From a virus, in IMG/VR virus record IMGVR_UViG_3300013233_000151, positions 7,962 to 71,961 of that record: a DNA stretch of 64,000 nucleotides; one strand, 5' to 3'. The notes under the pieces were generated by a model. The model searched no databases and had not been told where the DNA came from. It was given only the letters and a program-made list of their open reading frames with translations. The translations under genes and the position numbers were made by a program. Positions within the stretch are counted from its first letter, which is position 1; every line of letters begins with the position of its first letter. Below are positions 1-50,166 of the stretch, piece by piece.

Positions 1-16
1 AGCTGAGGACCAACCA

Positions 17-3000
17 ATGAAGAAGCAAACCACCGGCTCGGGCATGGCGGGCGAGATCGCCACCTACGTCATGCGCGGCAACCGCACGCCCTACGATCTC
101 CGCCAGCATTTCCGCCTCACGCTCCCGGCGGCTCAGAAGATCATGGATCAGTCCAACTACGCCTTCGGCCCGGGCGGAAAGGGCTACGCCTGGTACATGA
201 AGCAGGTCGGCAACGTGCTCAAGGGCGGAAACGTGTTCGAGGCCACGAACGCACAGAGCATCGCCGCAGGTGCGTTGGGCGCGATGAATCGAGGCCGCGA
301 CGCGAGCGTTCAATTCATCAACGAGGGTGTGCCGGAGACGCACCAGCGCAAGATCGCAGTCGCCACGCTCAAGATGAGCGCGATGGGCGCGAAGATCGCG
401 GGCGGCATGGATCACGCCGGAGCCGTAGCGGTGCTCAAGGACGCGGGCTGGTCCCCCGCGAAGATCGCTGCCCAGCTCAAGAAGGCCGGACATGACGCGG
501 CTGACATCAAGAAGTGGATGCACGAGTCGCTGGATGAGGACGAGAAGGCCAACGCTCGGAAGATGAAGGCGAAGGGTTACCGCTTCATCATCGAGTTCCC
601 GAACAACAAGCCCGCGCCGCTGTACGCGAAGACGCTCTCGATGGCGACCGAGATCATCAAGGACCACGGTGCGCCGAAGGGCGTCAAGGGTCAGCCGATC
701 GACAAATTCCTCAACGAAGACTCTGAGGACGACGAGCTGGACGAGGCGCTCGGAGCGAAGGACAAGAAGGTGATCGCGGCGTTCACGGACAAGAAGCCGA
801 TGGACGGTCCGAAGCTCTCCACGGATGGCGAGACGCTCGACTTCAACGGCATGGGCGGTCGCGGTGTTGCGTCGTGGTCGAACGGCAAGATCTACATGGG
901 CGACACCGGCAGCACGCAAGACGATGCGGTGCACCGCGCGATTCGCAAGACCGCGCCGCGTAACTGGATCGGTGAGTCCACCGACGAAGCGAGCCCGTCC
1001 GTGCTCGGCGACAAGCTCAAGGCGATGTTCGACGCGGAGTATTCGCTCAACCACGGCAAGGGCAAGGACGCGGCTGCGTCGGTCAAGAAGGCTCTCGAAG
1101 CGAAGGTCAAGAAGCTCGCTTCCGAGCTGGGGAAGGTAGGCGGCTACAAGTATCTCGTGAGCCCCGCGCTGAACAACGCGCGCAAGGGCACGAGCTGGTC
1201 GAAGTTCGCGCGCAACATGGTCACGTCGAACCTCGACATGGGCGAGTCGCTCGATGAAGCCGTCCAGGTCACGGCTGCGTACGCGCTGGCGAACATGAAG
1301 CGCGGCGATCGCGTCGAGCTTTCGACGCCGCAGTCGGGCAACCAGACGCGCAAAGGCAAGGCCGTGATGCGCGGACCCCACGGATGGGCGGTCGATCTTG
1401 GAGGCAAGCATGGCACGCCCGGCGTTGCCACCGAACGCAACCTCATCAAGTGGAAGGCTCACCCGGTTGTGAGCGAGGCGAGGGGAGCGGGTAAAGGTGA
1501 GTTGGCAGGTAGGCGCATCGGCGTCGGCACCGTCAAGAAGTCAGCGAGTGGTGCGAAGGATAGGGCCTCTGCTAAGCGCATCGTCGAGGGCGTGCTTGGA
1601 ATTCAAGACCGTGCACACGCACGACAGCTTGGGATCGACGAGAGCGTCTTGGGTCGTGCGAACGGTCTGCCGACTGCGCTGCGCAAGTATTCGCACGCGC
1701 TCCCCAAAGGTCTTGGTAAGCCGCAGAAGTACGAGACGCGAGACGGCGTGAAGGAGGGCTACTACCTCACACTCACCGACAACAAGCGCGGGCTATCCAA
1801 TCGTCCCGGTTCGTCGAGCGGCAGCCTCACCGCCGTCTTCACGGTCGAGAACCTGCTCAGTCAGTTCAAGAAGGCGGAGGGTGAGCACGGTCAGCACGGT
1901 CACACGACGTTGACTTTCAAGAAGGGCGAGGGCAAGGCTCCGAAGATTGTTGAAGCCCGTCTCTCGGGCGGCAGCGGAGGCAGTTCCAAGAAGGCGTCAC
2001 GCAAGGATGATCCCGAAGCCGCAGGTTCGAGTAGGTTCGCTGCTCAGGGCGTCGGAAAGAAGGCCAAGCGTGAGAGCGACCACGGCGAGCACCACAGCAA
2101 CTACGAGTCTGTGGAAGAGGCCAAGGGAGACCCGGTGCGGCTCAAGGTCATAAGCGCCGTTCGTGTTTCGTCCGTGGTTCCCGGAGCGACGGCGGGGGTC
2201 ACGCTTCAAGATCAGACGGTTCTTTTTCGATCGACCGATTACGACGGGCGTGGTGGTGTGACGGGTCCGTTTGTCCTCGTGGACTCGACGGACGCGATGT
2301 TCGCGGTGCTGAACTTCGGATGGAACGTCGGTTTTGAGGAAGAGCGCGGTCTCAACAAGAAGGCCCACGCTGCGATGCGTAGGAATGCGGCGCGGGCGTT
2401 CAAGCAGTTCTTGAAACGGACCAACGAATCCAACGACGACAACACCGACGACCTCTCCGCCAAGAAGGAGTCGGGTCTCAAGGCCAAGGCGAAGGAGATG
2501 GGAGCCATCAAGGTCTCGGGCAAGGGTCCTAGCGTGAACGCCACCTTCAAGGACAAGGCCACGGCCGAGAAGTTCTATCGGCACGCCAAGACGGTCGGCA
2601 AGGCGTCGATGCGCCGCAGTGGCGACACCGAGTTCACGATCAGCATCGACGAGTCCGAGGACTGCCCGGAGATCGTGGACATCGGCGATGGTCGCTACTA
2701 CATCGAAGGCGTCGGCATGTGTGAGTCGCTCGATGAGGCGCAGGGTCATCTGCTGCTCGATGAGGACGTGCTCGACGAGATGAAGAAGTCCAAAGGACAC
2801 GTCGCATTCCTGGGTGACTTCGAGTACGTGATCGTGAACGGCGGCGAGGGCATGGTGCTGGGACGCGCCCCGACCTCCAATGCCTTCGACCAGACGGGTA
2901 ACCGTCACGCGCGTTTCGAGGCCCCGGCGTGGCAGGCCGAGCAAGCGATGAAGCTCGCGTTCAGTGGCTTTCGGCAGAAGGTCGATCCGAAGGCGATGCA

Positions 3001-20123: not shown

Positions 20124-21005
20124 ATGCCCGCAGCAAGCCAGCTTTATGAAGTCATCCCGCGACACACACAGTTTCAGATCGGGCGCGATCTGCTGCCGAC
20201 GCAGTTGAACGACCCGTTGGTCGGCATCGTCAAACGTGAGGGCGTGCTCGAACGCACGGGAGGCGACCCCTCGCTGCCGAATCCGAATCCGCCGTCACGC
20301 ATCTTGCTTCATTGTTGCGTGCGCAACGCGGGCTCTGCTGACTTTACCCTGTCGGTCGATCAGTCGGCCAACAACAACTCCGACGGGCTCGACCCCCGCA
20401 ACCCAGCCGTCGGGCCTCTCACGCCCGACGCCTACGCCGACATGCCGATCCGCGTGGACGGTGTGGATGTTGCGGCAGGTACAGTGGTGGTGCAGCCTGG
20501 AGGCGTCGCTGTGTTCGTGATCGAGTGGAACGAGACGCACGACAACTACCTGCGATTCCAAGCACCTCCGGTGGGCAGCGCGCAAGCGACCGGCAACGTG
20601 GACCTCACCGGCCTTCCGGTCTCGGGCGAGCAGGTCATCATCGACGATGGCGTGAACCCGGCCATCACCTATCAGTTCGGTGCGGGTGCCGACACGCCCA
20701 CGTTGCAGCACGTAGCGATCGGCATCGACGCCGCCACTACGATTGCCAGCTTCATCGCGTTGGTCAACACGCCGACCGCAGGCGCGATCATCGACATCAC
20801 GGCGTCGGCGGGCGCGGCTGACTCGATGGATCTGGTCAACGATCGCTTCGGTGAGGTGGGGAACGTGCTCATCACTGAGGCTGCCACCAACACGACCGCG
20901 ACCGGCATGTCCGGCGGTGCCGATGCAGGTCAGCCATTCGGCGAGCTGACGCTCGCGCACTACAACGGCACGCTCGTCATCCGCGCCCGCGAAGGCATCA
21001 TCTAG
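20124..21005 (+). CDS. Putative virion structural protein carrying one copy of the sheath-insert module
   Basis: ATGNVDLTGLPVSGEQVIIDDGVNPAITYQFG...TGMSGG is homologous to repeats in the sheath and the 39019 ORF. Confidence 0.65.
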   Translation: MPAASQLYEVIPRHTQFQIGRDLLPTQLNDPLVGIVKREGVLERTGGDPSLPNPNPPSRILLHCCVRNAGSADFTLSVDQSANNNSDGLDPRNPAVGPLTPDAYADMPIRVDGVDVAAGTVVVQPGGVAVFVIEWNETHDNYLRFQAPPVGSAQATGNVDLTGLPVSGEQVIIDDGVNPAITYQFGAGADTPTLQHVAIGIDAATTIASFIALVNTPTAGAIIDITASAGAADSMDLVNDRFGEVGNVLITEAATNTTATGMSGGADAGQPFGELTLAHYNGTLVIRAREGII

Positions 21006-31496: not shown

Positions 31497-31514
31497 AGCA
31501 CACGAGGACACGTC

Positions 31515-34127
31515 ATGGCACAGAGCCCCGGAATCATCACCAACGAACTCACGTTCATCAAGACCAACCCCACACTGGGGGTTACGCTGCCGGTGATCGT
31601 CGGCGGAGCGACGAAAGGCCCGGTGGGCTCTCCGTTGCTTCTTCAAAACGAGACCGACCTGATCCGTGAGTTTGGGCAACCGTTCGCAAGCGACTTCGGT
31701 TTGCTATCGGCGATCGAGTATCTCAAGCAAGGCACGCAGATGTTCTTTCTGCGCGTTGCTGACGGGACTGAATTGGCCGCGACCGTGGAGTCCACAGGAC
31801 CCGAGGGCATCGCGGCTACTGGTTCGATCGCGCTTTCGGGTCAGCCGAACGACGCCGACAACGTGGTGATTTCTGACGGCGTGCTACCGGCGGTGACGTT
31901 CGAGTTCGATGTGGCAACGGCCGCGACGGGCGACATCACGTTCTCGGGCCTGCCGGTCGCCACCGAGACGCTCACGATCGACGACGGCGTGAACCCAGCC
32001 GTCGTCTTCGAGTTCGACACTGCGAACGAAGCGGCCGGTACGCTCGTCCTCGGAGGTCAGCCTTCCGACGCTGATACGTGGCGCATTTCGGACGGCACGA
32101 ACATCGTGGACTTCGAGTTCGACAATAACAGCTCGGTGGTCGAAACCCAGACGCTCCGACAAGTCGTCATTGGCGCGACGCTCTCCGATACGCTCAACAA
32201 CCTGCAAGCGGCCATCAATAACGCGGCTTTCACGTTCAACATCACGGCCGACAACCCGACGCTCGGTACGACCGTTGCGATCACGAACGACAACGTGGGT
32301 GTGGCGGGCAACGTGGCGATCGTCGAGCAGGTCAACGTCTCGACTAACCTTAGCTCGACCGGCATGTTGGGCGGCGACGATCTCACGGCTGGCGGCGGCA
32401 ACATCCCGGTCCGCATCGGTGTGGACGGCCAAGAGACCCGCGACTTTCTGATCGCTGCGATTCAAGGCGTAGCCTCCTTCGCGGTCACGGCCGTCGCTAA
32501 TGGCGCGCTGGTTATTGACCTCACCAACGACGCTGCGGGTACGGCGGGCAACGTGGCGATCACGGGTACGCCCACGAACGTCGCCCACACTGGTATGGCG
32601 GGCGGCACGGACGCGGGCGTCGGCGTCGGTAACGTCGCGGTCGCCGTCGGTTCCACCACGGCGATCACGGTCGAGAACCTGCGCCAAGCCATCAACAACA
32701 ACGCCTTCGCGGTCACGGCTGCTCCCGGAGCGGGCTCGATCGTCTCGCTCTCGAACATCGTCGCCAACGGTGCGGTCGGGAACGTCACGATCACCGGCAC
32801 CGATATCGCGGGCGTGCAGACGCTCGCTGGCATGGGCTCCGGCGTCGCCGCTGGGTCGCTGGTTGGCATGACCGTCACGGCCATCACGCCCGGCACATGG
32901 GGCAACTCGGTCTCGGTCGTGTTCCGGGCGACACAGATCTCGGGCGCGGCTGCGGGCGCGTTCGACATGGACGTGATCGCTCCTGTCGGGACCAGCGGCG
33001 CGTTCCAAGTCGTCGAGACGTTCTTCAACCTCTCGACCACGAGCACAGACGCCAACTTCATCGAGACGCTGGTGAACACGGGCGTCGTCAACCAGTCGAA
33101 CCCGAGCCGCTACGTCAACGTCACGGTTACGATTGACCAGACGCCGGTGGCGGGTACGCTCGCGCTCGGCACCACGCAGGCGGGCACAGACGGGATCAGT
33201 GCGCTCGACGACGCCGACTATATCGGCACCTCGACCGGCACATCTGCGACGGGCCTCCAGTCGCTTCGCAACTCCGAGTCTGTTCAGTTCAATCTGCTGG
33301 CGATCCCGGGCATCACGACCAACGCCGTGATCCTGGAGGGCATCGACGTGTGCGAGACACGACAGGACGCGCTATACGTCGTCGATCCACCGCCGAATCT
33401 CACCGTTCAAGAAGTAGCCGACTGGCACAACGGCTTGTCAGTGCTGCCCAGCGCCCCGGTCGCTCAGCTCGACAGCTCATACGCGGTCATCTACTGGAGC
33501 CACCCTACGACGGCGAGCCAGTACCTCCAACAGAATGTCAAGCTGCCTCCCAGCGCCTTCGTGCTCGCTCAGTACGCGCTCGCGGACCGTCAGGTAGGTC
33601 ACTCGTGGCGGGCAGTCGCGGGCGCGCAGCGCGGCAAGATCGACGCCCTCACGGTTGAGTTTTCGCCTGATCTCACGCAGCGTAACCTGTTGCTCGGTGG
33701 CTCGAACGCCGTGAACCCGATCGTGGAGTTCAGTGGTGGACAGGGCGTACAGATCTTCGGCAACGAGACACTCCAGAGGACGCCCGGCCCCACCGATGCC
33801 GTTCACATTCGTCGCGGTATGCTCGAACTCAAGCGGGCATCCGTTGAGGTCACGCGCGACATTCAGTTCGAGCCCAACGATCCGCAGACGTGGAGGAACG
33901 TCGAGCAGAAGATTCAACCCCTGCTCGACTTTCTCGTAGGTGTGCGTGCGATCGAGCCCGGTGCGACGGTCGTGTCGAACGCCGACACGAACCCGCCTGA
34001 GGCGCAAGCGCAGAAGACCGTCAATGCTCGGATATTCATCAAGCCCATCGGCGCGGCGGAAACGCTCGTTCTCGGCTTCGTGCTTGAGGCTATCGGCGCG
34101 GGATCTCTGTCCATTATCAACGCCTGA
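31515..34127 (+). CDS. Contractile tail sheath protein with triple nested insertion
   Basis: SPGI..E, GGATKGPVG, TPGTWGN, LLAIPG, LPPSAFV, AGAQRG, VNPIV, IFGNETL, IHIRR-type VHIRR, FEPND. Confidence 0.95.
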   Translation: MAQSPGIITNELTFIKTNPTLGVTLPVIVGGATKGPVGSPLLLQNETDLIREFGQPFASDFGLLSAIEYLKQGTQMFFLRVADGTELAATVESTGPEGIAATGSIALSGQPNDADNVVISDGVLPAVTFEFDVATAATGDITFSGLPVATETLTIDDGVNPAVVFEFDTANEAAGTLVLGGQPSDADTWRISDGTNIVDFEFDNNSSVVETQTLRQVVIGATLSDTLNNLQAAINNAAFTFNITADNPTLGTTVAITNDNVGVAGNVAIVEQVNVSTNLSSTGMLGGDDLTAGGGNIPVRIGVDGQETRDFLIAAIQGVASFAVTAVANGALVIDLTNDAAGTAGNVAITGTPTNVAHTGMAGGTDAGVGVGNVAVAVGSTTAITVENLRQAINNNAFAVTAAPGAGSIVSLSNIVANGAVGNVTITGTDIAGVQTLAGMGSGVAAGSLVGMTVTAITPGTWGNSVSVVFRATQISGAAAGAFDMDVIAPVGTSGAFQVVETFFNLSTTSTDANFIETLVNTGVVNQSNPSRYVNVTVTIDQTPVAGTLALGTTQAGTDGISALDDADYIGTSTGTSATGLQSLRNSESVQFNLLAIPGITTNAVILEGIDVCETRQDALYVVDPPPNLTVQEVADWHNGLSVLPSAPVAQLDSSYAVIYWSHPTTASQYLQQNVKLPPSAFVLAQYALADRQVGHSWRAVAGAQRGKIDALTVEFSPDLTQRNLLLGGSNAVNPIVEFSGGQGVQIFGNETLQRTPGPTDAVHIRRGMLELKRASVEVTRDIQFEPNDPQTWRNVEQKIQPLLDFLVGVRAIEPGATVVSNADTNPPEAQAQKTVNARIFIKPIGAAETLVLGFVLEAIGAGSLSIINA

Positions 34128-34169
34128 TTCTCGAATCAACCTACACCTCCTTGAGCCAGGAGATTTACC

Positions 34170-34709
34170 ATGCCCCTCGACACTCTGAATGCTGACCATA
34201 TCGGTCAGGTCGGCGGCGGCTTCGAGCCGCAGCGGACTAATAACATCCTCTTCACCGTCACGGGTCTGGCGGGTAACGACAACGATGTCATCACGTTGTC
34301 GTTCACTTCGGGTCCGCTACCGAAGATGAGCATCACTCCGATTGAGGTTCGCTACCTCAATCAGACGCGGAAGTTCGCCGGTACGGTGGTCTACGAGGAT
34401 GTCCCGATGATCTTCAACGACTACGTGGATCAGGAGACGGCGACCGTCCTCGCCAACTGGTTCTACCTGGCGCACAACCCGCTCAGCGGCAAGACCGCCT
34501 TGGCGAGGGACTACAAGAAAAACGGTCGCCTGACCCTGTACGGTCCTCAAGGTACGTTCGACCGCGAGTGGGAGATTCAGGGCGCGTGGATCAGCAACTA
34601 CGACCCGGGCGACGCTGACATGGAAGGCGAAGACCGCGTGCGCATCACCGCGACCATCACGATCGACAAGGCCGTTTACATCCCGTCCAACCTGTCGGCG
34701 ACGGGCTAG
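34170..34709 (+). CDS. Tail tube protein, T4 gp19-like
   Basis: FEPQRTN, LPK, RKFAG, DYKK, REWEIQGAW; follows the sheath. Confidence 0.92.
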   Translation: MPLDTLNADHIGQVGGGFEPQRTNNILFTVTGLAGNDNDVITLSFTSGPLPKMSITPIEVRYLNQTRKFAGTVVYEDVPMIFNDYVDQETATVLANWFYLAHNPLSGKTALARDYKKNGRLTLYGPQGTFDREWEIQGAWISNYDPGDADMEGEDRVRITATITIDKAVYIPSNLSATG

Positions 34710-34724
34710 TGCCCCCTGACCGCA

Positions 34725-34749
34725 ATCTCTGGACCCGGTGTCCAGAGAT
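34725..34749. repeat. Palindrome copy 3 (ATCTCTGGAC CCGGT GTCCAGAGAT)
   Basis: Perfect 10-bp inverted repeat just after the tube stop. Confidence 0.85.
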
Positions 34750-34792
34750 CCGATAACCTAACCATCCCTCCTGACACCGCAGGAGTTTCGAC

Positions 34793-35569
34793 ATGACCGA
34801 ACTAGGCTGGAATAGCTACACGCTTCCGTCCCGTGGGCAGCTCTATCAGGGACGCCTTCCCGACGGAATCGTTCAGATTCGACCCCTGCGAGCGCGCGAA
34901 CAGGCGAAGCTCATGCAGCAAGGCGGGGGCATTGTGGGAAAGGTGGATTCCATCATTTCCACCTGCCTCAAGCTCCCCGAGGGGATCAAGTCGAAGGAAC
35001 TGCTCCTCGTCGATCGCTTCGCGGTGCTGCTTGCGCTCAGGACCAAAACTTTTGGACCAGAGTACACGTTCGACTACCGTTGTCAGGACTGTGGTGAGCA
35101 GCAGAAGGGTCACATCAACATCGTCGAGGACTTCGATGAGCGGACCCCCGACAGTGATCTCGCTGAGCCATTCGATATCGAGCTGCCCGATGAAGGCAAG
35201 GTGGTGAAGATGCGATTTCTCCGAGGGGAGGACGAGGATCAGATCGCCAAGAACTCCAAGCGGGTCAAGATGCAGTCGAACGACTCCGCTGATCCGAGCT
35301 ATCTGATCCGCCTTGCGATGCAGATCATGGCGATCGACGGCGAGGACCCGGAGAAGATGCGGTCGCTTGTGGATCGACAGAAATTCATCGAGGGGATTTC
35401 GGCGGGCGACCTATGCGTATTGGAGGACGCGATGAACGACCTGGAGCCGGGTATCGACACGAGGATTTACCCCGAGTGCAGCAAGTGTGCCTATGTCAAC
35501 GAAATGACGATGCCGTTTTCGGCAGAGTTTTTTCGTCCGAGACGGAGGAGTCGATCTCGAAACACTTGA
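34793..35569 (+). CDS. Baseplate hub/tail assembly chaperone, T4 gp26-like
   Basis: LPSRGQLY, LLLVDRFAVLLALR, CQDC, ELP, RFLRGEDE, CSKC, EFFRP. Confidence 0.85.
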   Translation: MTELGWNSYTLPSRGQLYQGRLPDGIVQIRPLRAREQAKLMQQGGGIVGKVDSIISTCLKLPEGIKSKELLLVDRFAVLLALRTKTFGPEYTFDYRCQDCGEQQKGHINIVEDFDERTPDSDLAEPFDIELPDEGKVVKMRFLRGEDEDQIAKNSKRVKMQSNDSADPSYLIRLAMQIMAIDGEDPEKMRSLVDRQKFIEGISAGDLCVLEDAMNDLEPGIDTRIYPECSKCAYVNEMTMPFSAEFFRPRRRSRSRNT

Positions 35570-35786
35570 GGCGAACGTCTTCTTCCTTGTGTACGGCAGC
35601 CACGGTGGATTCACCAAGGCCGACATTGATGCGATGGATCAAGCAGAGGTGTTCCGCTACACCCAACGTCTTGCGGAGCAGCGCAAGAAGGAGAATGAGG
35701 CGCGTGACGAGGCCAACCGCAAAGCCGCGAAGGGCGCTAAGAAGAATCAGACTCCGCTGTGGAAACGGCTCACCGGCCACCGCTGA
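35529..35786 (+). CDS. C-terminal chaperone frame (gp51-like), probably reached by a +1/-2 frameshift at TTTTTTC
   Basis: Frame open from 35508; DLETLEANVFFLVYGSHGGFTKADIDAM..QRLAEQRKKENE; first in-frame start is only GTG 35589. Confidence 0.6.
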   Translation, partial: FFVRDGGVDLETLEANVFFLVYGSHGGFTKADIDAMDQAEVFRYTQRLAEQRKKENEARDEANRKAAKGAKKNQTPLWKRLTGHR

Positions 35787-35793
35787 GAGCTGC

Positions 35794-35823
35794 GTAGACG
35801 AATCCTTCGGAGGTCTCTAAACT
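35794..35823 (+). promoter_or_regulatory. Putative promoter G-TAGACG N17 TAAACT
   Basis: Recurring motif, intergenic. Confidence 0.65.
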
Positions 35824-35910
35824 CAACCCCAACGAGGAGGCCGCCACGCCCCTACAACTCATGCGTCATTTGTCGAAGTCTACTACAGACCTAGCAGCAG
35901 GAGGTGCTCC

Positions 35911-37167
35911 GTGAGTGCCGAATGGAACTCGTCCACTTTTCAGTTCGATCCTGTTGGCCAGTCACACACGTTCTCGTTCATCATGGACAAGATCGAAAAC
36001 TTCCTCACGATGTCTGGATGGCAGCGCCCCTCGTGGGATGGCGGGTCCTTCGGTCCAGGAACCAATGGGGGTCCGGACTCTGCTTCGACGGACGTGAGGC
36101 ATTTTCTACGGACCGATCGCGCGACGCAAGATCGGTGGCGCTTCACTGGAGATCTCATTACGCAGCACGGTGGAATCGTGGTGTGGTATAACGCAGATCC
36201 GACGGCTGGACCTTACGGTCCGAACCTTGGCGGTACTACTGACGCAGGAGAGAGCGGCCCTCAGATTGTCATCCAGACTTTCTTGGAGAATACAACGACG
36301 GATGGTGTGCAGGTCTACACGCCCGATCACGACGTTACGGTTTCTGGCATCGCTCGCTTTGGTTCGATTCGTGTTTTGATCGACAACCTCGTGGTCAACA
36401 ACTGGTTGCTCTATGGGGGTGAAGACGGATTCTACTTGGAATCGGGACGCGACACCTTCAACGCGAGCCTCGGTCACGGGGCCGTGATGACGTTCGGAGA
36501 GATCCCGGAGTTCAACGGCACGCGCGATGCAGCTCGTCAATGGACGGCGCAAGGTCTCGTGTGCGACATGCGCGGGAACTGTCGATTCACAGAGGACCGC
36601 AACGATCGTTTCGTCTCCAATGACGGGACGAATAAGAACATGACGGCTTCTCTCCAGCCGTTCAGCCCACGAGGTACTGCGAGTATTGACTCGCTATCTG
36701 GAAACGTCTTTGATGCGCGTCCCTATTACATCGGGTGCCGCGACAACTTTTTGTCCGCGACCCCCTACGGCGCGACCTCGTTGTCTCAGGAGATCTTTCA
36801 AGGATCCGGCAACGGTCTCTCCGCTAGGTACGCCGCGTCCTTTGGCCTTATCAACACGCCTAAGAATGATCGGATTAGGATCTCTCCGTTGTTTATGGTG
36901 CAGCAGATAACCCATGTAAATTCGGGTGTAACGAGCGTCTCTGCTCTGAACAACATTGTGGCATCCGTCAACGCATGTCCTCAACTTGATGTGCGAACCA
37001 TGCGTCAAGTCTTTCGCTTCGTAGGTGCTGACCACACGCTCATTCCGTTCTTGAGTGTGGTGGATTCGGTTAGTGGAGCTACATATCGAATTGCTCGCAT
37101 GGCCGACAATGGGCGATTCTCGCAGTTTGGTGTGGAGGTTCCTTCGACGGTCCTAACACTTCCGTAG
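35911..37167 (+). CDS. Putative tail accessory structural protein
   Basis: GGAGG RBS; beta/Gly-rich; within the tail cluster. Confidence 0.6.
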   Translation: MSAEWNSSTFQFDPVGQSHTFSFIMDKIENFLTMSGWQRPSWDGGSFGPGTNGGPDSASTDVRHFLRTDRATQDRWRFTGDLITQHGGIVVWYNADPTAGPYGPNLGGTTDAGESGPQIVIQTFLENTTTDGVQVYTPDHDVTVSGIARFGSIRVLIDNLVVNNWLLYGGEDGFYLESGRDTFNASLGHGAVMTFGEIPEFNGTRDAARQWTAQGLVCDMRGNCRFTEDRNDRFVSNDGTNKNMTASLQPFSPRGTASIDSLSGNVFDARPYYIGCRDNFLSATPYGATSLSQEIFQGSGNGLSARYAASFGLINTPKNDRIRISPLFMVQQITHVNSGVTSVSALNNIVASVNACPQLDVRTMRQVFRFVGADHTLIPFLSVVDSVSGATYRIARMADNGRFSQFGVEVPSTVLTLP

Positions 37168-37176
37168 GAGAATGAC

Positions 37177-39009
37177 ATGACGGAGTTTGGACAGAACATC
37201 GTCCCTGCAATCTACGAGGACAATACCTTACGTACATTCTCGAAGGCGGGGTTCTTGAGCCATTTGGTTCGGGCGCTTGAAACCGTCGGAATGGTATCGC
37301 TGCATAGTCTGTGGCCTTACGATCCGTTCTCGACTCCTGAGTTCCCGATTCAAGAGGGCCAAACATATCTGTTCCCGTTTGACTTCCCGAACGATGGTGG
37401 GACGATGACGTGGAACGTGAATGGTACGTTGTATCGACCATGCTTCGTGGTGGCGATGTATCACGGAAACGAGAACTCCATCATCAATCCGACACGTCTT
37501 GAGACACACATCCTCGTCGAGAACGCGATTCGTCTCGACGGAGCCCCGGTGCTCAACAACATTTTTTCGATGAGTCGCACCCGAGGGTCTACAGGACTCA
37601 TCGGCTTTGGGGTGCCCACCAACGGATACACGACTGTCTTTCCGAATCAAGCAGGACAGGAACTTCAAAAGGAGGATTGGCTGCCGTATGTAGGTTCGGC
37701 TGCTTCTAACCAATCAATCCTCCCTGTTGGTCACTGGTTCGTGTATCTAGGGCCTGCGGGACTACAGGTCTACGCCGGATCTAACAACACACGACTCGCG
37801 TACGGAGACCTCATTGCTGCGGGGTGTTTGTTCGCAGGCGCGCGCCTTCCCGGACGTGCGCGACCCGTCACCGAAGACGGAAACCTAAACCGCATCAACC
37901 CGATCCTTCCGATGTATTGGAAGGAGACCAATACGGTCACTACCGGGAGTACCTTCTGGTCAACCAGTACGCTTGACGCTAACGCTCTTTACTTCGAGAG
38001 GTTTAGACCGAAGATCCACCGGATGCAGGCGGACATCAAGTCCACGGATGAGATCGTGGATAGTTGGCTATTCAATTTAGAGAACGTCGAGTATCCAATC
38101 TTCCCGCTCTACCAACCAGATACGCGCCCCAGCCCTCGTGCGATCACGGGCGGTGGTGGCGGACATATCCTTGCGTTCGGCGTACAAGTCCCTGATTCGC
38201 GCGAGAACGATGCTACTGATAAGTTCGGTCCGGTGGTGCCTGAGCTGAACGCGAGTGAGGTGCGCCCCAAATTTGAGGATCTGTTCACAGGGGAGGGTTT
38301 TCGATTTTGCGACCAGAACGCGCCCATCGGAATTCACACGGATCCCAACACACTGCTTGATTGGTACTTGGTCCCGACCTACAACTCAAATCAGCTTGTT
38401 GGCCTGTTGCATGATAGCGGAACGACGGTTGATACACTGTCGGTCGTCGTGCTGACTTCGACTGATACCGATAGGTACGATCTCACTGGCGCTAACGGAT
38501 GGGGCAACACGTTTCCGACGGCGGTGACGGTTACGGAAACTGGAAGCGGAACGACCGTTTGGGACGACGCGAGTACGTTGGACGAACAGGTATTCGCGGT
38601 GCCGACACAGAATAACGTCCAGGCGTATGAGGTCCAGTGGGACATCGCTGTTAGCGGATCTGATCCGAGCGACACCCTCTATCAGATTTCGTTCACGGCA
38701 AACAACCGCGACGACCCGCAGGGCGGTCTGTTCTCGTCGGAGGGCTTCAATGATCTTACCTTGGAGTTTTTATTCGCCGGTGCGTGGGTTCCGGTTCTCA
38801 CGATCGAGTGCGCGGGCACCAACACGGCGTTTGTGAACTCAGAGGGCAAGCTCAGCTACTCGACACAGACCTACGCTGCTTTTGTTCAGAAGGATACGAG
38901 TACAGGGACGCCGCAACTTACGGTGCGGTGGCAGGCCGACGGTGACGACGACCGATCAAGCAACGGATCCGTAGGGGTTATTAGCATCAACAAGTTCCGC
39001 TACATGTGA
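37177..39009 (+). CDS. Putative tail accessory structural protein
   Basis: AGGAG RBS; beta-rich C-terminal region. Confidence 0.6.
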   Translation: MTEFGQNIVPAIYEDNTLRTFSKAGFLSHLVRALETVGMVSLHSLWPYDPFSTPEFPIQEGQTYLFPFDFPNDGGTMTWNVNGTLYRPCFVVAMYHGNENSIINPTRLETHILVENAIRLDGAPVLNNIFSMSRTRGSTGLIGFGVPTNGYTTVFPNQAGQELQKEDWLPYVGSAASNQSILPVGHWFVYLGPAGLQVYAGSNNTRLAYGDLIAAGCLFAGARLPGRARPVTEDGNLNRINPILPMYWKETNTVTTGSTFWSTSTLDANALYFERFRPKIHRMQADIKSTDEIVDSWLFNLENVEYPIFPLYQPDTRPSPRAITGGGGGHILAFGVQVPDSRENDATDKFGPVVPELNASEVRPKFEDLFTGEGFRFCDQNAPIGIHTDPNTLLDWYLVPTYNSNQLVGLLHDSGTTVDTLSVVVLTSTDTDRYDLTGANGWGNTFPTAVTVTETGSGTTVWDDASTLDEQVFAVPTQNNVQAYEVQWDIAVSGSDPSDTLYQISFTANNRDDPQGGLFSSEGFNDLTLEFLFAGAWVPVLTIECAGTNTAFVNSEGKLSYSTQTYAAFVQKDTSTGTPQLTVRWQADGDDDRSSNGSVGVISINKFRYM

Positions 39010-39018
39010 GCGCTGCTC

Positions 39019-42000
39019 ATGGGGGACTTCACTCTATCTGGTTTTCCGATCGGCAACGCGGGTGAGTTTTCACTCGAAGCTGAACAGCAACTCACTGGAG
39101 CGTTCACGCTTCAACTAACCATCGGAGATGGTGTGGGGAGCGAATTGCTGGTCGCACAGGCGACGGCCAATATGTCGGGTCTGGTTACAACGACCATCAT
39201 CGGCGTCATTACCGGAACGTCGAATCTCGTCGTGCAGGGTGGTGTGATTCTTGCGGCCTCGATCCCTGCGGGATTCTTTCCGTACGCGCAGGCGGAGTTG
39301 GTGAGCGGTCAGGCGATCTTCGATGGCAACTTATCGAACAATGATGGCACGAACGACTTCGGAGAGTGGCATCCTTTCCCCATCTACGCGGCCGGGGAGG
39401 TGACGGGCGGCTTCGTCGTGGATGCTCGGATCGGTTCGAGCGCGCTCGCGCGGGAGCTGATCGCGCAGGCGTCCGCCAACATGACGGGCAGCCCGCAGGT
39501 CGATCAGTTCATCGGCATCGCGGACGTGTCGGGCAACGAGTTGCTCAGCGCCGCCGCGACGGCGAACATGACGGGGCAGCCCGACTTGCTCAAGGACGGC
39601 GGCTCGCCTCCGTTCGTGATTCTCAACGGCACGGACCAGTACCTCAGCCACCCGGTTGTCACGGACAGTGACTTGCGCGGGGGCGCGAACTTCTCGTGCG
39701 TGATCGTTTTCGACCCCGAGGTCGTGGAGCAGGGCGGGACGGGAGTGCTGTGCGGCAAGCACGACCCGAACGCTACTACGGCGGATTGGGGCTGGAGGGC
39801 CTTGTGGGACGCGACCACGGGCGAAATCACGGTGACGGTCTCCAGCTCCTCCACGGGTGCGGACCGTGCTGAGCGCACGACGGCCGTAGGGGGCACGGGG
39901 ATCCGCGTCAGGACCGTCTTCGCGTTCACCTGGGACAGTACGACCTTGAGTCTGTACGTCGCAGGCAGCGCCTCTCAGGGCGTCCAGACGAACTTCGGCA
40001 TCGTGGGTGTGATGGTGGCGAGCACGGCTCGGTTCGCCGTGGGGGCGGACGATACGCTCTCGACGCCCGCCAACTTCTTCCAGGGCGCGATCCACGCCAT
40101 CTACATCTTCGATGACGTGCTCAGTGGGGCGGAGGTCGGGACGATCGACCAGTCGGGCTACATCCCTTCGGCGCTCGATGACGCGAACTTTGTGGTGGCG
40201 TGGCGACCCGACCGCATCGAGGGATCGACCGTTGGCTTTCAGGTTACGAAGTGGCTCGATGAGAAGGCGAACCGACAGCTAGATCGTAGTGACGGAACGA
40301 TCGTTTGCTTCCCGGGCTTCCTCGATCACCTTCGGTTCCTCTCCGACGAGTGGGACATGGATTTCCTCAATGCGCAGATTGCGGGCGTCAGCCTCGGCCA
40401 GAACCTCGCGTCGGACTTTGTTCTATCGGCCAGCACCACCAACTTTGTTGAGTCGGGTGGATTCCGTCTATTTGTTCCGGTCACGGGCACGGCAGAGCCG
40501 GAGATCGTCTCAGGATTCCGCACGAACGCCAACGACATCACGGTCTTTTGGGGAGGTCGAAAGGACGATGCGTCTGCAAACGATGTCGTTTACTTTGAGC
40601 TGCTCGCGCAGGGGCTCCAGGTTTTTTTTGATGCAGCGACGCTCGACCTCTTCGTCTATCAAGACACGGGTACGACGACGCGCTACGAGTTCGGGCAGTC
40701 GGTCCCCGGTATGGAAACGACTGTGCCGGATGGACCGGGAACCGTTTTTGCGATTCGATACAACAGTCAGACGGCGCTGTTCACGCTCTTTATCAACGGC
40801 GTCAAGATGTTCGAGGAGGGCACGACCGTTACCGGGCCGAACCTCGTGGGATCGGGGATGCGCTTCTGCGAGTTTGGGAATTGGGCGGCCATCAACGCTT
40901 CGGCCAGTCAGACGGATCGCCGAGCGGCCTTCGTGCTGCCCTCTTGCTTGCCTGATATCCTGATGGAACGAGTGCTCGCAGGTGTGATATCGCCGGTCTT
41001 CGGTATGGACAATGCGTCTCCGATCGGACGAACGCTGCGCGCCGCATTGCGACGTAATCCGGTCCCTTCGCTTCCGTTCGGATTGAACTTCTTTGAGTAC
41101 GATGCGATTGACGCTGCCGACGATGATCCTCCGAATCCGCAGCCCGATAGGTTGCGTCCGTATCCGACGGGATCCGGTACGGTCGAGATTTTGGGGCAGC
41201 CCCTCGATGGTGAACAGTTCACGCTCTCAGATGGCACAACTACCCTTACGTTTGAGATTGAGATCGCGGGAGGGATCACAGGTGACGTGTCGGTGTTCTT
41301 GGGAGCCAATGTGCTCGGTACACTCGTCAACATCGCTACTGCTATCAACATTTCGGCCCTTCGTCTGACGGCGGGAGCCCCCGTGGTGTTTCAACCTGAC
41401 GGAGCAAACGATCGAGGGTACGTACGGATTACTCAAGACGACTTACACGATGGCGACTTGCCGCTGGCAGTTGTCAATACCTCACACTTGATTGTGGGAG
41501 GACAGGTTCGCGTCACAGGACCGTACCGCGTCGATGGTCCTAGCGGATCGGTGGGCTTGGTGGACGGTCAACCGAATGACGGAGATCAGTTTGTCATATC
41601 GGACGGCATCAATACGGTAACCTTCGAGTTTGATACTGCGGGTGGTGTGGCGGTCGGTTCAACGGCTGTTCCGATTGGGGCGACCATGACGTTGACGATG
41701 GATAATCTGGTCACGGCCATCAACGCTTCGGTGCTGCTTTTGACAGCAGACCCGACGCAGGCATTCAACCGCTTTGAGATTACGGCTATCGACGCCGTAC
41801 AGAGTATTCTGACGGCACGCCGGTCGAGTAATCCGACCGACTACGCGAATCGGGTCGATCGGCCCATCATTATTCCCGTCAACGCCTCTGGAAATTTGGT
41901 GGCCTCTACGAACTTTGCGCAGCCTGCTCCGTTTGAGGAGTCGATCGCATCCGGTCTTGGAGGGCTTGTTTACGGGACCGTCAATACGGATACGACGCTG

Positions 42001-42900
42001 ACGTTTGTGGACAATCCGTATTCGGTCTTAGAGCCCGAAGCGCTAACGGTAGGTGTTGGGACTTTGCCTCCGTTCATCAACCCTACTCCGAGCATCTCGT
42101 CCGTCACAGCCGACTTGGCAAAAAACGTGACGGCCGTTGCTCTGGCTGGACCGACGGACGCAGGCGATGTGAGATCTTGGTGGGAGATTGAGCTGGTGTC
42201 GGACGATCCACAGTTCAACCTGCGCATCGACGAGCAAGACAACAACTTTTCGATCAACAAAATCCAGTCGGATACGTTTTCGATTCCGCTAGGTCAGGAT
42301 TGGGATGATCTTCGGATTCGTTTTGTCATCCAATCGCAGCTCGATCCGAATCAGCTTTGGTTCTCGCTGTACGTGCGCATGACAGGAGAGAACTTCAATA
42401 ACGGAACCGTAGAGACCATTATCCTTCCAGGCGTGGGCGCTCCAGAGCCTCCCCCGACGATTGAGCTGGAGATCTCTACAACTCAACAAGCCTTCGTGGT
42501 GCAGGAAGCTTCGGCCGCTGCTGCGCGTCAGCTTGCTCTCTCAAACCGTTCTCGTTACAAGCTTACGCGACTCTTCGTCAATGCTAAGACGGACCCACGT
42601 ATCGTGGGCCGCAACGAAGATGGGTTGGAGTTCGGTCTCCTTTCCGTTCTTGACGACTTCCTTGCTTTGGGAACCGATGTGAGAACCTACAAGGTCAGGT
42701 CGGGTGATATCGGGTTCTTGGATCAGATCTCTGTGAAGTTCTACGGAGCAGGCTTCGAGGACTTCTGGTGGGTGATCGCTTACGCGAATGGGATTGCGGA
42801 TCCCGATGCCGATATGTTCGTGGGTCAGAACCTCGTGATCCCTCCGCGCGAAACCGTTACCGCGTTCTTGTCTCGTAAGCCCACGGGGGATGGTCGTTAG
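39019..42900 (+). CDS. Large baseplate protein: N-terminal repeats, LamG/ConA-like domain(s), two sheath-type modules, C-terminal LysM/gp53-like domain
   Basis: LNGTDQYL..FTWDSTTLSLYV..FAVG..FQGAIHAIYIFDDVLS (LamG); YKVRSGD..LDQISVKFYG..FWWVIAYANGI.DP..GQNLVIP (LysM-like). Confidence 0.75.
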   Translation: MGDFTLSGFPIGNAGEFSLEAEQQLTGAFTLQLTIGDGVGSELLVAQATANMSGLVTTTIIGVITGTSNLVVQGGVILAASIPAGFFPYAQAELVSGQAIFDGNLSNNDGTNDFGEWHPFPIYAAGEVTGGFVVDARIGSSALARELIAQASANMTGSPQVDQFIGIADVSGNELLSAAATANMTGQPDLLKDGGSPPFVILNGTDQYLSHPVVTDSDLRGGANFSCVIVFDPEVVEQGGTGVLCGKHDPNATTADWGWRALWDATTGEITVTVSSSSTGADRAERTTAVGGTGIRVRTVFAFTWDSTTLSLYVAGSASQGVQTNFGIVGVMVASTARFAVGADDTLSTPANFFQGAIHAIYIFDDVLSGAEVGTIDQSGYIPSALDDANFVVAWRPDRIEGSTVGFQVTKWLDEKANRQLDRSDGTIVCFPGFLDHLRFLSDEWDMDFLNAQIAGVSLGQNLASDFVLSASTTNFVESGGFRLFVPVTGTAEPEIVSGFRTNANDITVFWGGRKDDASANDVVYFELLAQGLQVFFDAATLDLFVYQDTGTTTRYEFGQSVPGMETTVPDGPGTVFAIRYNSQTALFTLFINGVKMFEEGTTVTGPNLVGSGMRFCEFGNWAAINASASQTDRRAAFVLPSCLPDILMERVLAGVISPVFGMDNASPIGRTLRAALRRNPVPSLPFGLNFFEYDAIDAADDDPPNPQPDRLRPYPTGSGTVEILGQPLDGEQFTLSDGTTTLTFEIEIAGGITGDVSVFLGANVLGTLVNIATAINISALRLTAGAPVVFQPDGANDRGYVRITQDDLHDGDLPLAVVNTSHLIVGGQVRVTGPYRVDGPSGSVGLVDGQPNDGDQFVISDGINTVTFEFDTAGGVAVGSTAVPIGATMTLTMDNLVTAINASVLLLTADPTQAFNRFEITAIDAVQSILTARRSSNPTDYANRVDRPIIIPVNASGNLVASTNFAQPAPFEESIASGLGGLVYGTVNTDTTLTFVDNPYSVLEPEALTVGVGTLPPFINPTPSISSVTADLAKNVTAVALAGPTDAGDVRSWWEIELVSDDPQFNLRIDEQDNNFSINKIQSDTFSIPLGQDWDDLRIRFVIQSQLDPNQLWFSLYVRMTGENFNNGTVETIILPGVGAPEPPPTIELEISTTQQAFVVQEASAAAARQLALSNRSRYKLTRLFVNAKTDPRIVGRNEDGLEFGLLSVLDDFLALGTDVRTYKVRSGDIGFLDQISVKFYGAGFEDFWWVIAYANGIADPDADMFVGQNLVIPPRETVTAFLSRKPTGDGR

Positions 42901-42945
42901 ATGGCACTCAGCGACAACGCCAATCGGTTAGGCTACTCGGTATGA
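42901..42945 (+). pseudogene. Orphaned original start of the tape measure gene (MALSDNA...), duplicated at 43642
   Basis: ATGGCACTCAGCGACAACGCC vs GTGGCTCTTAGCGACAATGCC encode the same 7 residues. Confidence 0.7.
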
Positions 42946-43652
42946 CAGCCATCAAGCCGGGCTCGACCGTGACGATCTATGCCATCCGCTGTAAGCGTAA
43001 TGGCTATCGGTACGTTGGCGCGACGGGTACTTCGGTTCGCCGACGTTGGAGTAACCACAAGTCCAAGCTACGAGGTCGGCAGAACCACGGGACGGTGAAG
43101 TTGCAAGAGGCGTGGGATCGTTTTGGCGAAGGCTCTTTTGTCGTCGAGGTTCTGGAAGAGGGTGTGTCGTATTCGGATGCTGCTGAGCGCGAGGCATTTT
43201 GGATCGGTCAGTTTAGGCGGATCTTCAACACCGGCGATCCTCTTGACCTCGGGACCCATGCGGAGAAGGACTACATCGTGACTCCTCCGGGCGGGCCTGA
43301 GCGCGCGGTGCGTAACCTACGGCGATATTGTCAGGAGAACCGTCTGGGTTCGGCCAATATGGTGCTGGTTGCGCAGGGCGTTGCAGTCCATCATCGAGGG
43401 TGGCTGTGCAGATACGCGGGGGATGCTGCGCCGAAGGTGAAGAGGGAGCGATACACGGGGGGCTATTGGGTTGATTGGGTCGGCGGAGGGCGCGAGTTCG
43501 TCTCTTCGTTGAAGGGTTGGTGTCGGACGCAAGGATTTGATCCCGATACGATACGCCGCTTGGTGGATGATCTTCCGGTTCGGAAGGACTTTGAGTTTAC
43601 GATCGAGGTTGCGCGTCCGCGCTTGAGAAAGGAGGTGCAACGTGGCTCTTAG
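42942..43652 (+). mobile_element. Free-standing GIY-YIG homing endonuclease gene
   Basis: TIYAI..YRYVGAT..RRRWSNH..LQEAWDRFG..F.VEVLE..E..WI; C-terminal DNA-binding-like repeats. Confidence 0.85.
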
Positions 43653-46424: not shown

Positions 46425-47014
46425 TGCTTGTGGAAGGTAACCTTGGCGATCGTTTGACTATAACGATCGACCCGTTGTGGCCTCATCAGTCATTGTGGCG
46501 TCATCCTTTGGGGAATACGCTGCGCGTGACCTTCGTGGATTTTGATGCGGGTATTCAGGAGAATGCTGCGCCCAACTACGTCAACACGGAGGTCGTCGGT
46601 CGCGCCGAAGCTTACAAGGCGTTTATCAATACGCAGAATCGACAGATTCAGATTCCGTTCAAATTCCGCGTGCAGGGACAGACCTCGGCGGATTCGCGCA
46701 CGGCGATTGAAGCAGAGGTCGTCAATCCAGCACGCTTTTTGGATGCGCTAAAGTATCCGGTTTACGATGCGAATCAGAATCTTTCGTTCCCGCCCCCGAC
46801 TGTGCTCGTGCACGTCGGTCAACTGTTCACGGCGCGGTGTATCCTTACAGGAGGCGACATCAACTGGCTGCATAATCCGTTGGAGATCGACACGTTATTG
46901 CCTCATGGATGCGACTTCAATGCGCAGTTCGAGGTAGTGCGTACATTCCGAGCTGACTTGAGCTACTTCCCGTCGGGACAGACGGGCGGTCCTGTTTCTG
47001 GAGATTGGCTGTGA
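46424..47014 (+). CDS. Tail tube initiator/baseplate tube-like protein
   Basis: EVVGRAEAYKAF..RQIQIPFKF, PPPTVLVHVG; follows the tape measure. Confidence 0.7.
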   Translation: MLVEGNLGDRLTITIDPLWPHQSLWRHPLGNTLRVTFVDFDAGIQENAAPNYVNTEVVGRAEAYKAFINTQNRQIQIPFKFRVQGQTSADSRTAIEAEVVNPARFLDALKYPVYDANQNLSFPPPTVLVHVGQLFTARCILTGGDINWLHNPLEIDTLLPHGCDFNAQFEVVRTFRADLSYFPSGQTGGPVSGDWL

Positions 47015-49496: not shown

Positions 49497-49500
49497 TCGC

Positions 49501-50166
49501 ATGTCCTGCGGAACTTGTCCCGATACCGTCATCTCAGTTCTGCGCACCATCGTCCGTAAGGAGTTGGATAAGCTGACTGCGATTGTCCGTATGACTAGCT
49601 TCTTCAACGATGCGATTGGAGACGTGGCGAGCGTTGGCGTATCTGATGTGAACGCTGCCGTGACTGCAATTCCCTCTCCGGTATCCATCAACTTCATCGA
49701 CATTCTTGGATACCTAACTTGTCCGCTCACGCCGTTGGCTCTCGGAATCGGGGAACTCGCGGATCTTACGAGCGGAGACCTCAATAATCAGCTCAAGGCA
49801 TTGCAGGCGTTGCAAACGGGAACGATCGACAAAGCACGCCGGAGCTATGAGACGGCACTCAATGGGAGCGTAAACGCTAAGTTGATTCGACAGTCACGCA
49901 AGTACGAGAAGAGCCTGCGTCAGATCAACTTCGATCCTACGTCATTCGCCAACGCGGTACTCATCACAGCTACCGTTCAGAGCGTGTGCGACCAGCAAGA
50001 ATTCGACGATGTGTTCACCACGTTCGCTACGCTCTCATCTAGTTTCTCGTTCACGGGCGGAGTTCCGGCTACGCTCAACAGCAACCTCGCAGCAATGATT
50101 CAGAAGCTTGGAAACGGTGAAGCTAAGTTCGCCGCGCTTCGCAAGTCGCTGCATAGCTTAGGATAG
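49501..50166 (+). CDS. Hypothetical helical protein between spike and PAAR-like gene
   Basis: ORF in operon. Confidence 0.6.
   Translation: MSCGTCPDTVISVLRTIVRKELDKLTAIVRMTSFFNDAIGDVASVGVSDVNAAVTAIPSPVSINFIDILGYLTCPLTPLALGIGELADLTSGDLNNQLKALQALQTGTIDKARRSYETALNGSVNAKLIRQSRKYEKSLRQINFDPTSFANAVLITATVQSVCDQQEFDDVFTTFATLSSSFSFTGGVPATLNSNLAAMIQKLGNGEAKFAALRKSLHSLG

Follow-up and report, generated by a model that had tools for sequence, protein, structure and literature searches.

The tail sheath protein of an uncultivated phage appears to carry an insert in which one small module is nested three times inside itself. The protein is encoded by the open reading frame (ORF) at 31515..34127, plus strand, of a 64,000-nucleotide stretch of viral DNA (IMG/VR record IMGVR_UViG_3300013233_000151, positions 7,962 to 71,961). 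This whole stretch is called the window below, and coordinates are counted from its first letter. An earlier reading of the letters alone, referred to here as the original prediction, had noticed three consecutive first halves (N) of a module followed by three consecutive second halves (C). The explanation that accounts best for the evidence overall, and that we consider probable, is a triple self-nested module in a T4-type sheath, at the site occupied by domain I in gp18 of phage T4.

In the proposed arrangement, each copy of the module would be inserted into the loop that follows the third strand (ending in FEFD) of the enclosing copy. The chain would run out through N1, N2 and N3, turn in the native loop of the innermost copy, and return through C1, C2 and C3, with D1 (N1+C3), D2 (N2+C2) and D3 (N3+C1) as the folded domains.

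By sequence and by predicted structure, the 870-residue product of the ORF is a T4-type contractile tail sheath. It matches the tail sheath family phrog_23 (E 1.7e-45) and phrog_10581 (E 7.8e-12), and sheath chains from the PDB match it by sequence at residues ~566-865 and 4-84 with E values of 1.3e-16 to 1.9e-14; Pfam gave no match to the whole protein at E <= 0.01. The AlphaFold2 (AF2) model of the protein superposes on 27 entries of solved sheaths at Z 19-38, over model residues ~20..850. The resemblance to the core of the T4 gp18 sheath is thus seen both in sequence (9mkb_1, E 4.8e-15) and in fold (3foa_A, Z 22.4; the T4-like 9ev2_S1, Z 37.8).

Six half-modules in the sheath protein

The original prediction placed the repeated region at 31815-32843, which corresponds to residues 101-443 of the sheath protein. 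When the boundaries of the halves were set by profile hidden Markov models (HMMs), built from the halves in two iterations on 110 proteins, the N-N-N-C-C-C order was recovered. Residues 100-448 read N1 N2 N3 C1 C2 C3, with three first halves of ~35 residues and three second halves of ~77 residues, one N-half plus one C-half making a module of ~110 residues.

The six halves lie close together on the plus strand. N1, the first half of the outer module D1, occupies residues 100-134 (31812..31916); N2, the first half of the middle module D2, residues 136-170 (31920..32024); and N3, the first half of the innermost module D3, residues 172-205 (32028..32129), ending in FEFD. There follows the native N-to-C loop of the innermost module (NNSSVVETQ..., residues 206-214, 32130..32156), recognized in the module alignment as the loop between FEFD and the V.IG motif. 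The second halves are C1 of the innermost module D3 (residues 215-292, 32157..32390), which the AF2 models show as a strand, a helix and four strands, C2 of the middle module D2 (residues 295-369, 32397..32621), and C3 of the outer module D1 (residues 372-448, 32628..32858). Only 1-3 residues separate successive N-halves, and the same is true of successive C-halves.

The repeats are clear at the protein level. Any two N-halves share 40-56% identity, and any two C-halves 35-43%. In Smith-Waterman comparisons against 2000 shuffles, z was 8.9-16.8 among the N-halves and 6.5-10.0 among the C-halves, and none of the 2000 shuffles reached the score in any of the six comparisons, while an N-half compared with a C-half gave z < 1, the level of chance. 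No DNA-level repeat was found by Tandem Repeats Finder in 31500..33200, and the copies of the module are therefore old.

Could the region be an artefact, either a low-complexity linker rich in Gly, Ala, Thr and Val or a mis-called frame, with no folded domains at all? The composition is indeed of that kind, and, owing to the high GC content, the other strand contains long ORFs that are spurious (31884..33008 and 32462..33091). However, the frame is continuous with segments of the sheath core on both sides, and profile matches fall only in ORFs of the plus frame. Moreover, all 38 orthologs, down to 42% identity, keep the six halves with invariant motif residues, and the nest is modelled with a predicted local distance difference test score (pLDDT) of 90. 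An artefact of this sort is hardly credible.

Several acidic residues of the N-halves are invariant in the 38 orthologs, namely D113, D121, E130 and D132 in the first, D157, E166 and D168 in the second, and D185, D193, E201 and D203 in the third. Most of these acidic residues are lost in an uninterrupted copy of the module encoded elsewhere in the window, in the ORF at 20124..21005. The acidic residues lie in the N-half motifs D.D.....DG and FEFD. A metal site at these positions, speculatively one for calcium, is possible.

Pairing of the halves

Which N-half folds with which C-half? One line of evidence comes from predicted structures. The AF2 model of the whole protein, computed from an alignment of the 38 orthologs (42-85% identical), has a mean pLDDT of 85.7; ten-residue blocks across the nest range from 74 to 93, and all but two reach at least 80. 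Residues 95-455 modelled alone (the insert model) gave a pLDDT of 90.0 and a predicted template modelling score (pTM) of 0.68. In the AF2 secondary structure, an N-half consists of three strands, and a C-half of a strand, a helix and four further strands.

The models were compared with 48,161 PDB chains using VIA-align, and 50 matches were listed for the insert model, whose numbering plus 94 gives the numbering of the protein. In 36 of these 50, the matched range runs from 39-43 to 265-279, that is, from the start of N2 to the end of C2. Another 11 run from 75-78 to 182-196 (N3 to C1), and the remaining three from 1 to 339/352 (N1 to C3, Z 4.1-6.1); none of the 50 is of the parallel type. The top 12, all N2 to C2, are matches to contiguous PDB domains of ~95-120 residues, with 81-98 residues aligned at a root-mean-square deviation (rmsd) of 2.0-2.8 A, and the N2 to C2 span of ~230 residues encloses the entire N3-C1 module.

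The full-length model adds matches to the outer pair. Two nozzle domains, 7y22_Y (Z 8.5, rmsd 2.1, 86 residues aligned) and 6r21_a (Z 8.3, rmsd 2.5, 89 aligned), cover model residues 101..439 and 97..438, respectively, both N1 to C3, while the flagellar cap protein FliD (6iwy_A, Z 8.0) covers 136..365. The ends of the N1 to C3 matches thus fall within C3 in both models, at 438/439 in the full-length model and at 433/446 (protein numbering) in the insert model. The original prediction had expected AlphaFold to pair N1 with C3, N2 with C2 and N3 with C1, and the spans on the AF2 models agree; the outcome that would have spoken for separate tandem domains made of the N- and C-halves did not occur in this comparison.

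A second line of evidence comes from the order of the halves in relatives. Each protein can be written as a word in N and C, and nesting predicts balanced words in the manner of brackets. Among 108 proteins, 107 carry halves and 85 have balanced words, with equal numbers of N and C. The depths of these 85 are one (13 proteins), two (24), three (43), four (2), five (2) and seven (1). Similarly, 93 of the best 150 matches of the module profile among 1.84 billion representatives are balanced. The words include NC, NCNC, NNCC, NNNCCC, NNCNCC (in sheaths of 890 residues), NNCCNC, and forms up to N7C7. The survey of homologs for depth of nesting, suggested along with the original prediction, therefore found depths of 1, 2, 3, 4, 5 and 7, together with branched forms.

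The relatives can also be typed, using position-specific profiles for N1, N2, N3, C1, C2 and C3 made from the 38 orthologs. In a four-deep protein, P0053, the N-halves are of types 1, 2, 3, 3 and the C-halves of types 1, 1, 2, 3, which is a mirror order, and P0073 reads N3, N3 followed by C1, C1. In the NNCNCC sheaths the outer pair is N1-like and C3-like, with an inner module that is N2-like and C2-like. BLASTP of P0053 against the sheath of the window (P0001) shows a single contiguous extra block of N plus C, located centrally. Furthermore, P0053 has two occurrences of VVETxTLR, the loop motif found between FEFD and the V.IG strand of an uninterrupted module; they precede the first and the second C-half and flank one whole extra module. 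The doubled loop looks like the scar of a whole module inserted just after FEFD. Both the original reading of one module nested three deep and the loop after FEFD as the type of site where inner copies were inserted are supported. The similarity matrices of the N7C7 protein P0071 also favour nesting; for them nested pairing gives r 0.90 (rank 6 of 5040) and parallel pairing r 0.57 (rank 140).

Finally, covariation was measured across the 38 orthologs as mutual information with average product correction. The top 20 N-C column pairs include ten between N3 and C1, five between N2 and C2, two between N1 and C3, one between N1 and C1, and none between N3 and C3.

A number of observations weigh against nested pairing. 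In the predicted structures, the pairing is deduced from where the alignments between models and PDB chains start and stop, and their Z values of 7-10.5 are, by the tool's own note, barely higher than those that an unrelated common arrangement may reach. Of the predicted pairs, the weakest is N1-C3, with just the three matches mentioned above in the insert-only model; its covariation is likewise unenriched, with 10 of the top 100 pairs against ~10 expected, and among the top 200 pairs C3 covaries more with N3 (29) than with N1 (21). The covariation of N3 with C1 may arise simply because the two make up one contiguous stretch with a separate evolutionary past. In the N5C5 protein P0072 the parallel order fits best (r 0.76, rank 1 of 120). 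Comparing N-N with C-C similarity in HMM-based alignments of proteins at least four deep, 5 of 9 favour the nested and 4 of 9 the parallel order, and the comparison is noisy at depth three. In single-module sheaths, the comparison of position types is confounded, since the junctions to the host domain are themselves conserved. The words are unbalanced in 22 of the 108 and 57 of the 150 proteins; many of these read NNCCC or NCC, and others are C-only fragments starting at residue 1 or belong to giant proteins, and we tentatively attribute them to short N-halves that escaped detection, to metagenomic genes that are truncated and to C-halves that have diverged. Lastly, the module has no sequence-level link to a named family; a search of PDB sequences with profile A3 returned only the Milano sheath, whose outer domain matches at E 0.22, below threshold.

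Some of these observations, namely P0072 with the four parallel-type proteins and the C3-N3 covariation, would be expected if there were no nesting, with the three N-halves forming one beta-rich domain beside three tandem alpha/beta C domains, or if the halves paired in parallel (N1-C1, N2-C2, N3-C3), for example in a closed ring. N-halves that occur without C-halves could be cited in the same direction. Six giant proteins of 1,358-7,587 residues (P0132, P0164, P0194, P0200, P0205 and P0239) contain arrays of a motif that corresponds to HMM positions ~10-35 of the N-half, with no C-half detectable in the arrays. However, their spacing of 90-130 residues points to tandem units with divergent second halves rather than to free N-halves, and these arrays are probably a related tandem repeat of that kind. 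It is also difficult to see how an arrangement without nesting would produce equal numbers of N and C in most of the proteins of both surveys, the mirror order and duplicated loop of P0053, the better nested fit of P0071, or the superposition of N1 to C3 and of N2 to C2 each on contiguous single domains, with no parallel-type match among the 50 listed. We regard both versions of this alternative as very improbable. A nested architecture of three modules, in contrast, is highly probable on the strength of the predicted structures and the sequences of relatives.

Place of the nest and distribution of the module

Nested insertion in the T4 sheath is textbook knowledge. In gp18, domain II (88-97 plus 189-345) encloses domain I (residues 98-188) and is itself inserted in domain III, which in turn is inserted in domain IV, according to excerpts of the published description (PMC3004832). 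Chain 3fo8_D, the protease-resistant fragment of gp18 (gp18PR), aligns with model residues 84..563 of the window sheath over chain residues 87..349 (Z 9.2, 111 residues), and the matches to 3fo8_D and to phiKZ gp29PR (3j0h_A) both begin at 84/86 and end at 560/563. From this alignment and the limits of the gp18 domains, residues 84-99 and 452-563 constitute a host domain like domain II, and the nest replaces domain I. The first strand segment of this host domain is encoded by 31764..31811 (matched by 3fo8_D), and its main part, a beta-sandwich, by 32868..33203 (matched by both chains). The C-terminal part of the conserved sheath core follows at residues 564-870 (33204..34124), in the region of the PDB sheath sequence matches and of phrog_23 and phrog_10581.

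The comparison with gp18 made in the original prediction thus holds, in that the nest sits at the topological place of domain I. The chain also follows the same out-and-back course in gp18, judging from the same excerpts (PMC3004832). The nested domains of gp18, however, are unlike each other, with one domain at this site, whereas the window sheath has three homologous copies and goes two levels deeper. T4 gp18 chains are absent from the 50 matches listed for the insert, which neither shows nor excludes that the module is domain I itself.

What is the fold of the module? The best structural match of the insert is the outer domain of the sheath of cyanophage A-1(L) (8kee_A, residues 92-184; Z 10.5, rmsd 2.0, 89 residues aligned), and the outer domains of the PhiTE sheath (9cb9_A, 86-179; Z 9.3) and the Mu sheath (9khy_a, 98-215; Z 9.0, 24% identity) also match the insert model. 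Overall, sheath outer domains, including those of Sf14, XM1, E217 and Milano, superpose on the module with an rmsd of 2.0-2.5 A over 85-97 residues. At these moderate Z values, the modelled module shares its fold with the outer domain found in simpler sheaths such as A-1(L), PhiTE and Mu, where the domain is also inserted after about residue 90. In those sheaths it is single, contiguous and placed directly in the core, whereas here it appears copied into itself and into other virion proteins.

The next structural matches, at Z 7-8.5, are podophage nozzle domains, FliD D2/D3, Pseudomonas aeruginosa flagellin, T4 gp11 and several baseplate proteins. Residues ~145-247 of T7-like nozzle proteins (nozzle chains Z 7.4-8.5) and residues 81-188 of T4 gp11 (Z 7.3) have the same fold in a single copy, with no self-nesting. 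The T7 paper gives the name 'fiber dock' to a nozzle domain, in passages that state no residue numbers, and we do not apply that label to the matched nozzle residues. A weaker match (Z 4.6) is to residues 81-180 of the A-1(L) baseplate-initiator chain 8kea_b. In the accessible part of PMC10966104, an insertion domain with the same residue range (81-180) in the A-1(L) wedge protein gp31 is said to hold the long tail fibre; by this shared range, 8kea_b is a candidate for that domain.

The flagellar proteins deserve separate mention. FliD chains (Z 7.1-8.2) and P. aeruginosa FliC (4nx9, Z 7.9) have outer domains of similar fold, at Z values where only a common arrangement may be shared, and FliD 6iwy is the only PDB match by Foldseek at E <= 1e-3 (E 2.9e-4). 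The topology is also alike, with D3 of the flagellar proteins continuous inside D2. FliD and flagellins are described as having similar nested outer domains (PMC8306008, in part), and Helicobacter pylori FliD, in the text available, as having extra domains D4 and D5 with folds like those of D2 and D3. Nevertheless, these are bacterial axial proteins with D0/D1 helical cores and no sequence similarity to the module, and the protein of the window matches sheath families rather than flagellar ones.

Sequence searches place the module in a large family. Among representative proteins, the module profile has 1,769 matches at E <= 1e-3, of which 547 reach E <= 1e-10. Among predicted structures in BFVD, the look-alikes come from uncultured phages, Rhodobacter phage RcTitan and PhiJL001. 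Pfam searches with the insert and four single modules at E <= 10 returned no sheath family (PF14059 and PF21500, at E ~0.09, are noise), and when the insert was searched by tblastn, with the low-complexity filter on, the 50,697 deposited phage records yielded no match at E <= 1e-3. By sequence against the PDB, C2 of the window sheath weakly matches 4il7_A (E 0.057), and the protein of the ORF at 20124..21005 found nothing.

The original prediction had pointed to uninterrupted copies in two other ORFs of the window, one copy in the first and two in the second, and the HMMs located them there. The ORF at 20124..21005 (P0002), in the head-gene region with the protease and major head genes downstream, contains a module at residues 154-270 (20583..20933, plus strand; N 154-188, C 195-270; profile A3 E 2.3e-35). 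The ORF at 39019..42900 (P0003) contains two in tandem, at residues 719-813 (41173..41457, plus strand; E 1.5e-28) and 841-929 (41539..41805, plus strand; E 1.0e-29), also by HMM and profile A3. Among 530 six-frame pieces of at least 60 residues in the window, matches to the module are confined to the sheath and these two ORFs, and the same holds for the whole 71,961-base record. We propose that the module behaves as a mobile domain of the virion surface; outside the sheath, this phage has one copy in a gene near those for the head and two copies in a protein that resembles baseplate or fibre proteins.

Of the three sheath copies, D2 is the one most like the module of the ORF at 20124..21005 (N2 40.3 bits and C2 58.5 bits with the position-specific profiles). 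D2 (31920-32024 plus 32397-32621) is also the most diverged copy among close relatives, at 52-74% identity to the window copy, compared to 63-88% for D1 and D3. This divergence, together with the likeness to 20583-20933, may reflect exchange between the two genes.

The gene order is that of a contractile-tailed phage. The head protease, major head and adaptor genes lie upstream of the sheath gene, which is followed by the tail tube gene (34170..34709, plus strand; phrog_4542 E 4.8e-19; Pfam Phage_T4_gp19 E 2.3e-4, below the curated cut-off) and, further downstream, by baseplate genes. The full record is linear and comprises 71,961 bases; since CheckV rates it 54% complete, its source is an uncultivated myovirus of perhaps 130 kb.

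Other features of the window were noted in passing. A giant ORF of at least 2,503 residues (2-7528, plus strand) runs off the 5' end of the window and has no PHROG match at E <= 1e-5. A paralogous pair of plus-strand genes (11927-13177 and 15921-17165) has ParB-like and DNA methyltransferase matches (phrog_498, E 5e-39 and 6.6e-74; phrog_620). Between the gene for the module-bearing 1293-residue protein and the next tail gene lies a homing-endonuclease-like gene (42942-43652, plus strand; phrog_314 E 3.5e-14, and phrog_7168). In the baseplate region (34001-50000), GC content drops from 0.61-0.64 to 0.55-0.59, and GC skew reaches its maximum of 0.22 at 44-46 kb.

Proposed growth and possible role of the arm

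How might such a nest arise? Growth would occur when the permissive loop of one copy receives a further complete module. Related sheaths differ repeatedly in their order word, with NC, NNCC, NCNC, NNNCCC and NNCNCC interleaved on a quick tree (midpoint root, and support only from the Shimodaira-Hasegawa-like approximate likelihood ratio test, SH-aLRT). Two sister sheaths on that tree, P0049 and P0050 (SH-aLRT 99), have two modules each, in tandem (NCNC) in one and nested (NNCC) in the other. From these changes and this pair, gain and loss affect entire modules, and self-nesting is the particular instance in which the loop that receives the insert is part of another copy.

In the folded protein, neighbouring beads would be joined by two short linkers, and each sheath subunit would carry an arm of three beads. 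With two short linkers at each joint, the arm should be fairly stiff. Its shape would be that of beads on a rod, ~75-90 A long if extended and directed outward.

The closest published parallel is Si3 of the cyanobacterial RNA polymerase beta' subunit, in which, according to excerpts of PMC10895346, eight sandwich-barrel hybrid motifs (numbers 2-5 assembled from distant segments of the chain) form an arm of 150 A; the part of PMC13114784 available describes a six-level nest. In Si3, and on the proposed reading in the sheath too, homologous small domains are recursively inserted into one another to give an elongated arm. As the models and alignments have it, the sheath nest shares two defining features with Si3, namely several homologous copies per chain and outer, discontinuous copies that enclose inner ones. 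Si3 differs in its cellular enzyme host and its irregular order, compared to a clean N3C3 in a virion protein, and may differ in fold, its own being the sandwich-barrel hybrid motif within an RNA polymerase trigger loop. RNA polymerase chains are absent from the structural matches listed for the full-length and insert models, from which we draw no conclusion about a difference in fold. By analogy, the sheath nest would work like Si3 in its architecture, and we assign it no membership in Si3.

For sheaths, the open-access full texts searched contained no description of a self-nested outer domain. The additional domains of type-3 sheaths are described by Evseev et al. 2022 as made of an outgoing and a returning segment of the chain (PMC9230969, in part), and the words 'nested' and 'repeat' occur 0 times in the text available of that paper.

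What could such an arm do? Domain I of T4 gp18 projects outward from the sheath and takes no part in contacts between subunits. Its binding partners are the baseplate and the long tail fibres in their retracted state, and fibre retraction is blocked by mutations in this domain (PMC3004832, in part). By analogy with domain I, the nest may provide the extended sheath with an exposed platform for docking or spacing, for example where fibres fold back or the baseplate makes contact, and we give this role a tentative preference. The nest is conserved like the core, with a mean pairwise identity of 0.56-0.57 versus 0.55, and depth three is kept in 25 of 25 rows of the window's clade (same quick tree). 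Conservation and fixed depth fit a structural or docking role better than a fast-evolving tip for host binding.

A nested arm might alternatively provide weak adhesion, with exposed modules binding carbohydrates in the manner of Ig-like accessory domains and raising the rate of adsorption. Adhesion has been proposed for additional sheath domains by Evseev et al. 2022 (PMC9230969, in the text available). The presence of the module on several virion proteins of this phage and in the wider family counted above would suit such a role, as would the frequent changes in module number among related sheaths. However, Pfam matched no carbohydrate-binding family by sequence, and the core-like conservation without a fast-evolving tip, like the fixed depth in the clade, argues the other way. 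We consider adhesion unlikely.

Perhaps, instead, the arms lie along the surface of the sheath and touch neighbouring subunits, bracing the extended sheath or tuning its contraction. The additional domain of phage 812 contacts a neighbouring subunit, and a cementing role has been proposed by Evseev et al. (PMC9230969, as far as that text is available). Conservation equal to the core and a fixed depth would be expected here as well. Against such a mechanical role, the domain at the same topological position in T4, domain I of gp18, lacks inter-subunit contacts (PMC3004832), and we view the role as somewhat more unlikely still than adhesion.

To return to the docking or spacer arm, the broadest form of the proposal is that the module represents a sizeable family, so far without a name, of mobile domains on virion surfaces that follow a bracket grammar, in which whole copies enter the permissive loop of other copies time after time, that the resulting semi-rigid, out-and-back rods are lengthened by ~25-30 A per level of nesting (from 1 to at least 7), and that on this sheath the fixed depth of three determines how far an arm extends to hold fibres or to keep the tail at a distance from its surroundings. 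Taken as a whole, this is a speculative and rather doubtful proposition. If true, it would amount to a general mechanism for making protein rods of tunable length, so far seen only in uncultured phages.

When one domain is inserted in another, the two are usually unlike; self-insertion is rare, and in the available parts of the literature is clearly found only for Si3 (PMC10895346, PMC13114784). The same principle would operate here, at depths from 1 to 7, in the tail sheath of a phage and in related virion proteins that number in the hundreds. For the study of protein evolution, these proteins would offer a natural series on recursive growth through a permissive loop, and for protein design a template for rods of stepwise length. 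For annotation, orders of the type N^kC^k would be read as k discontinuous domains and not as two families of repeats. For phage biology, the nest suggests that the decorations of a tail sheath can be long, conserved arms rather than single knobs.

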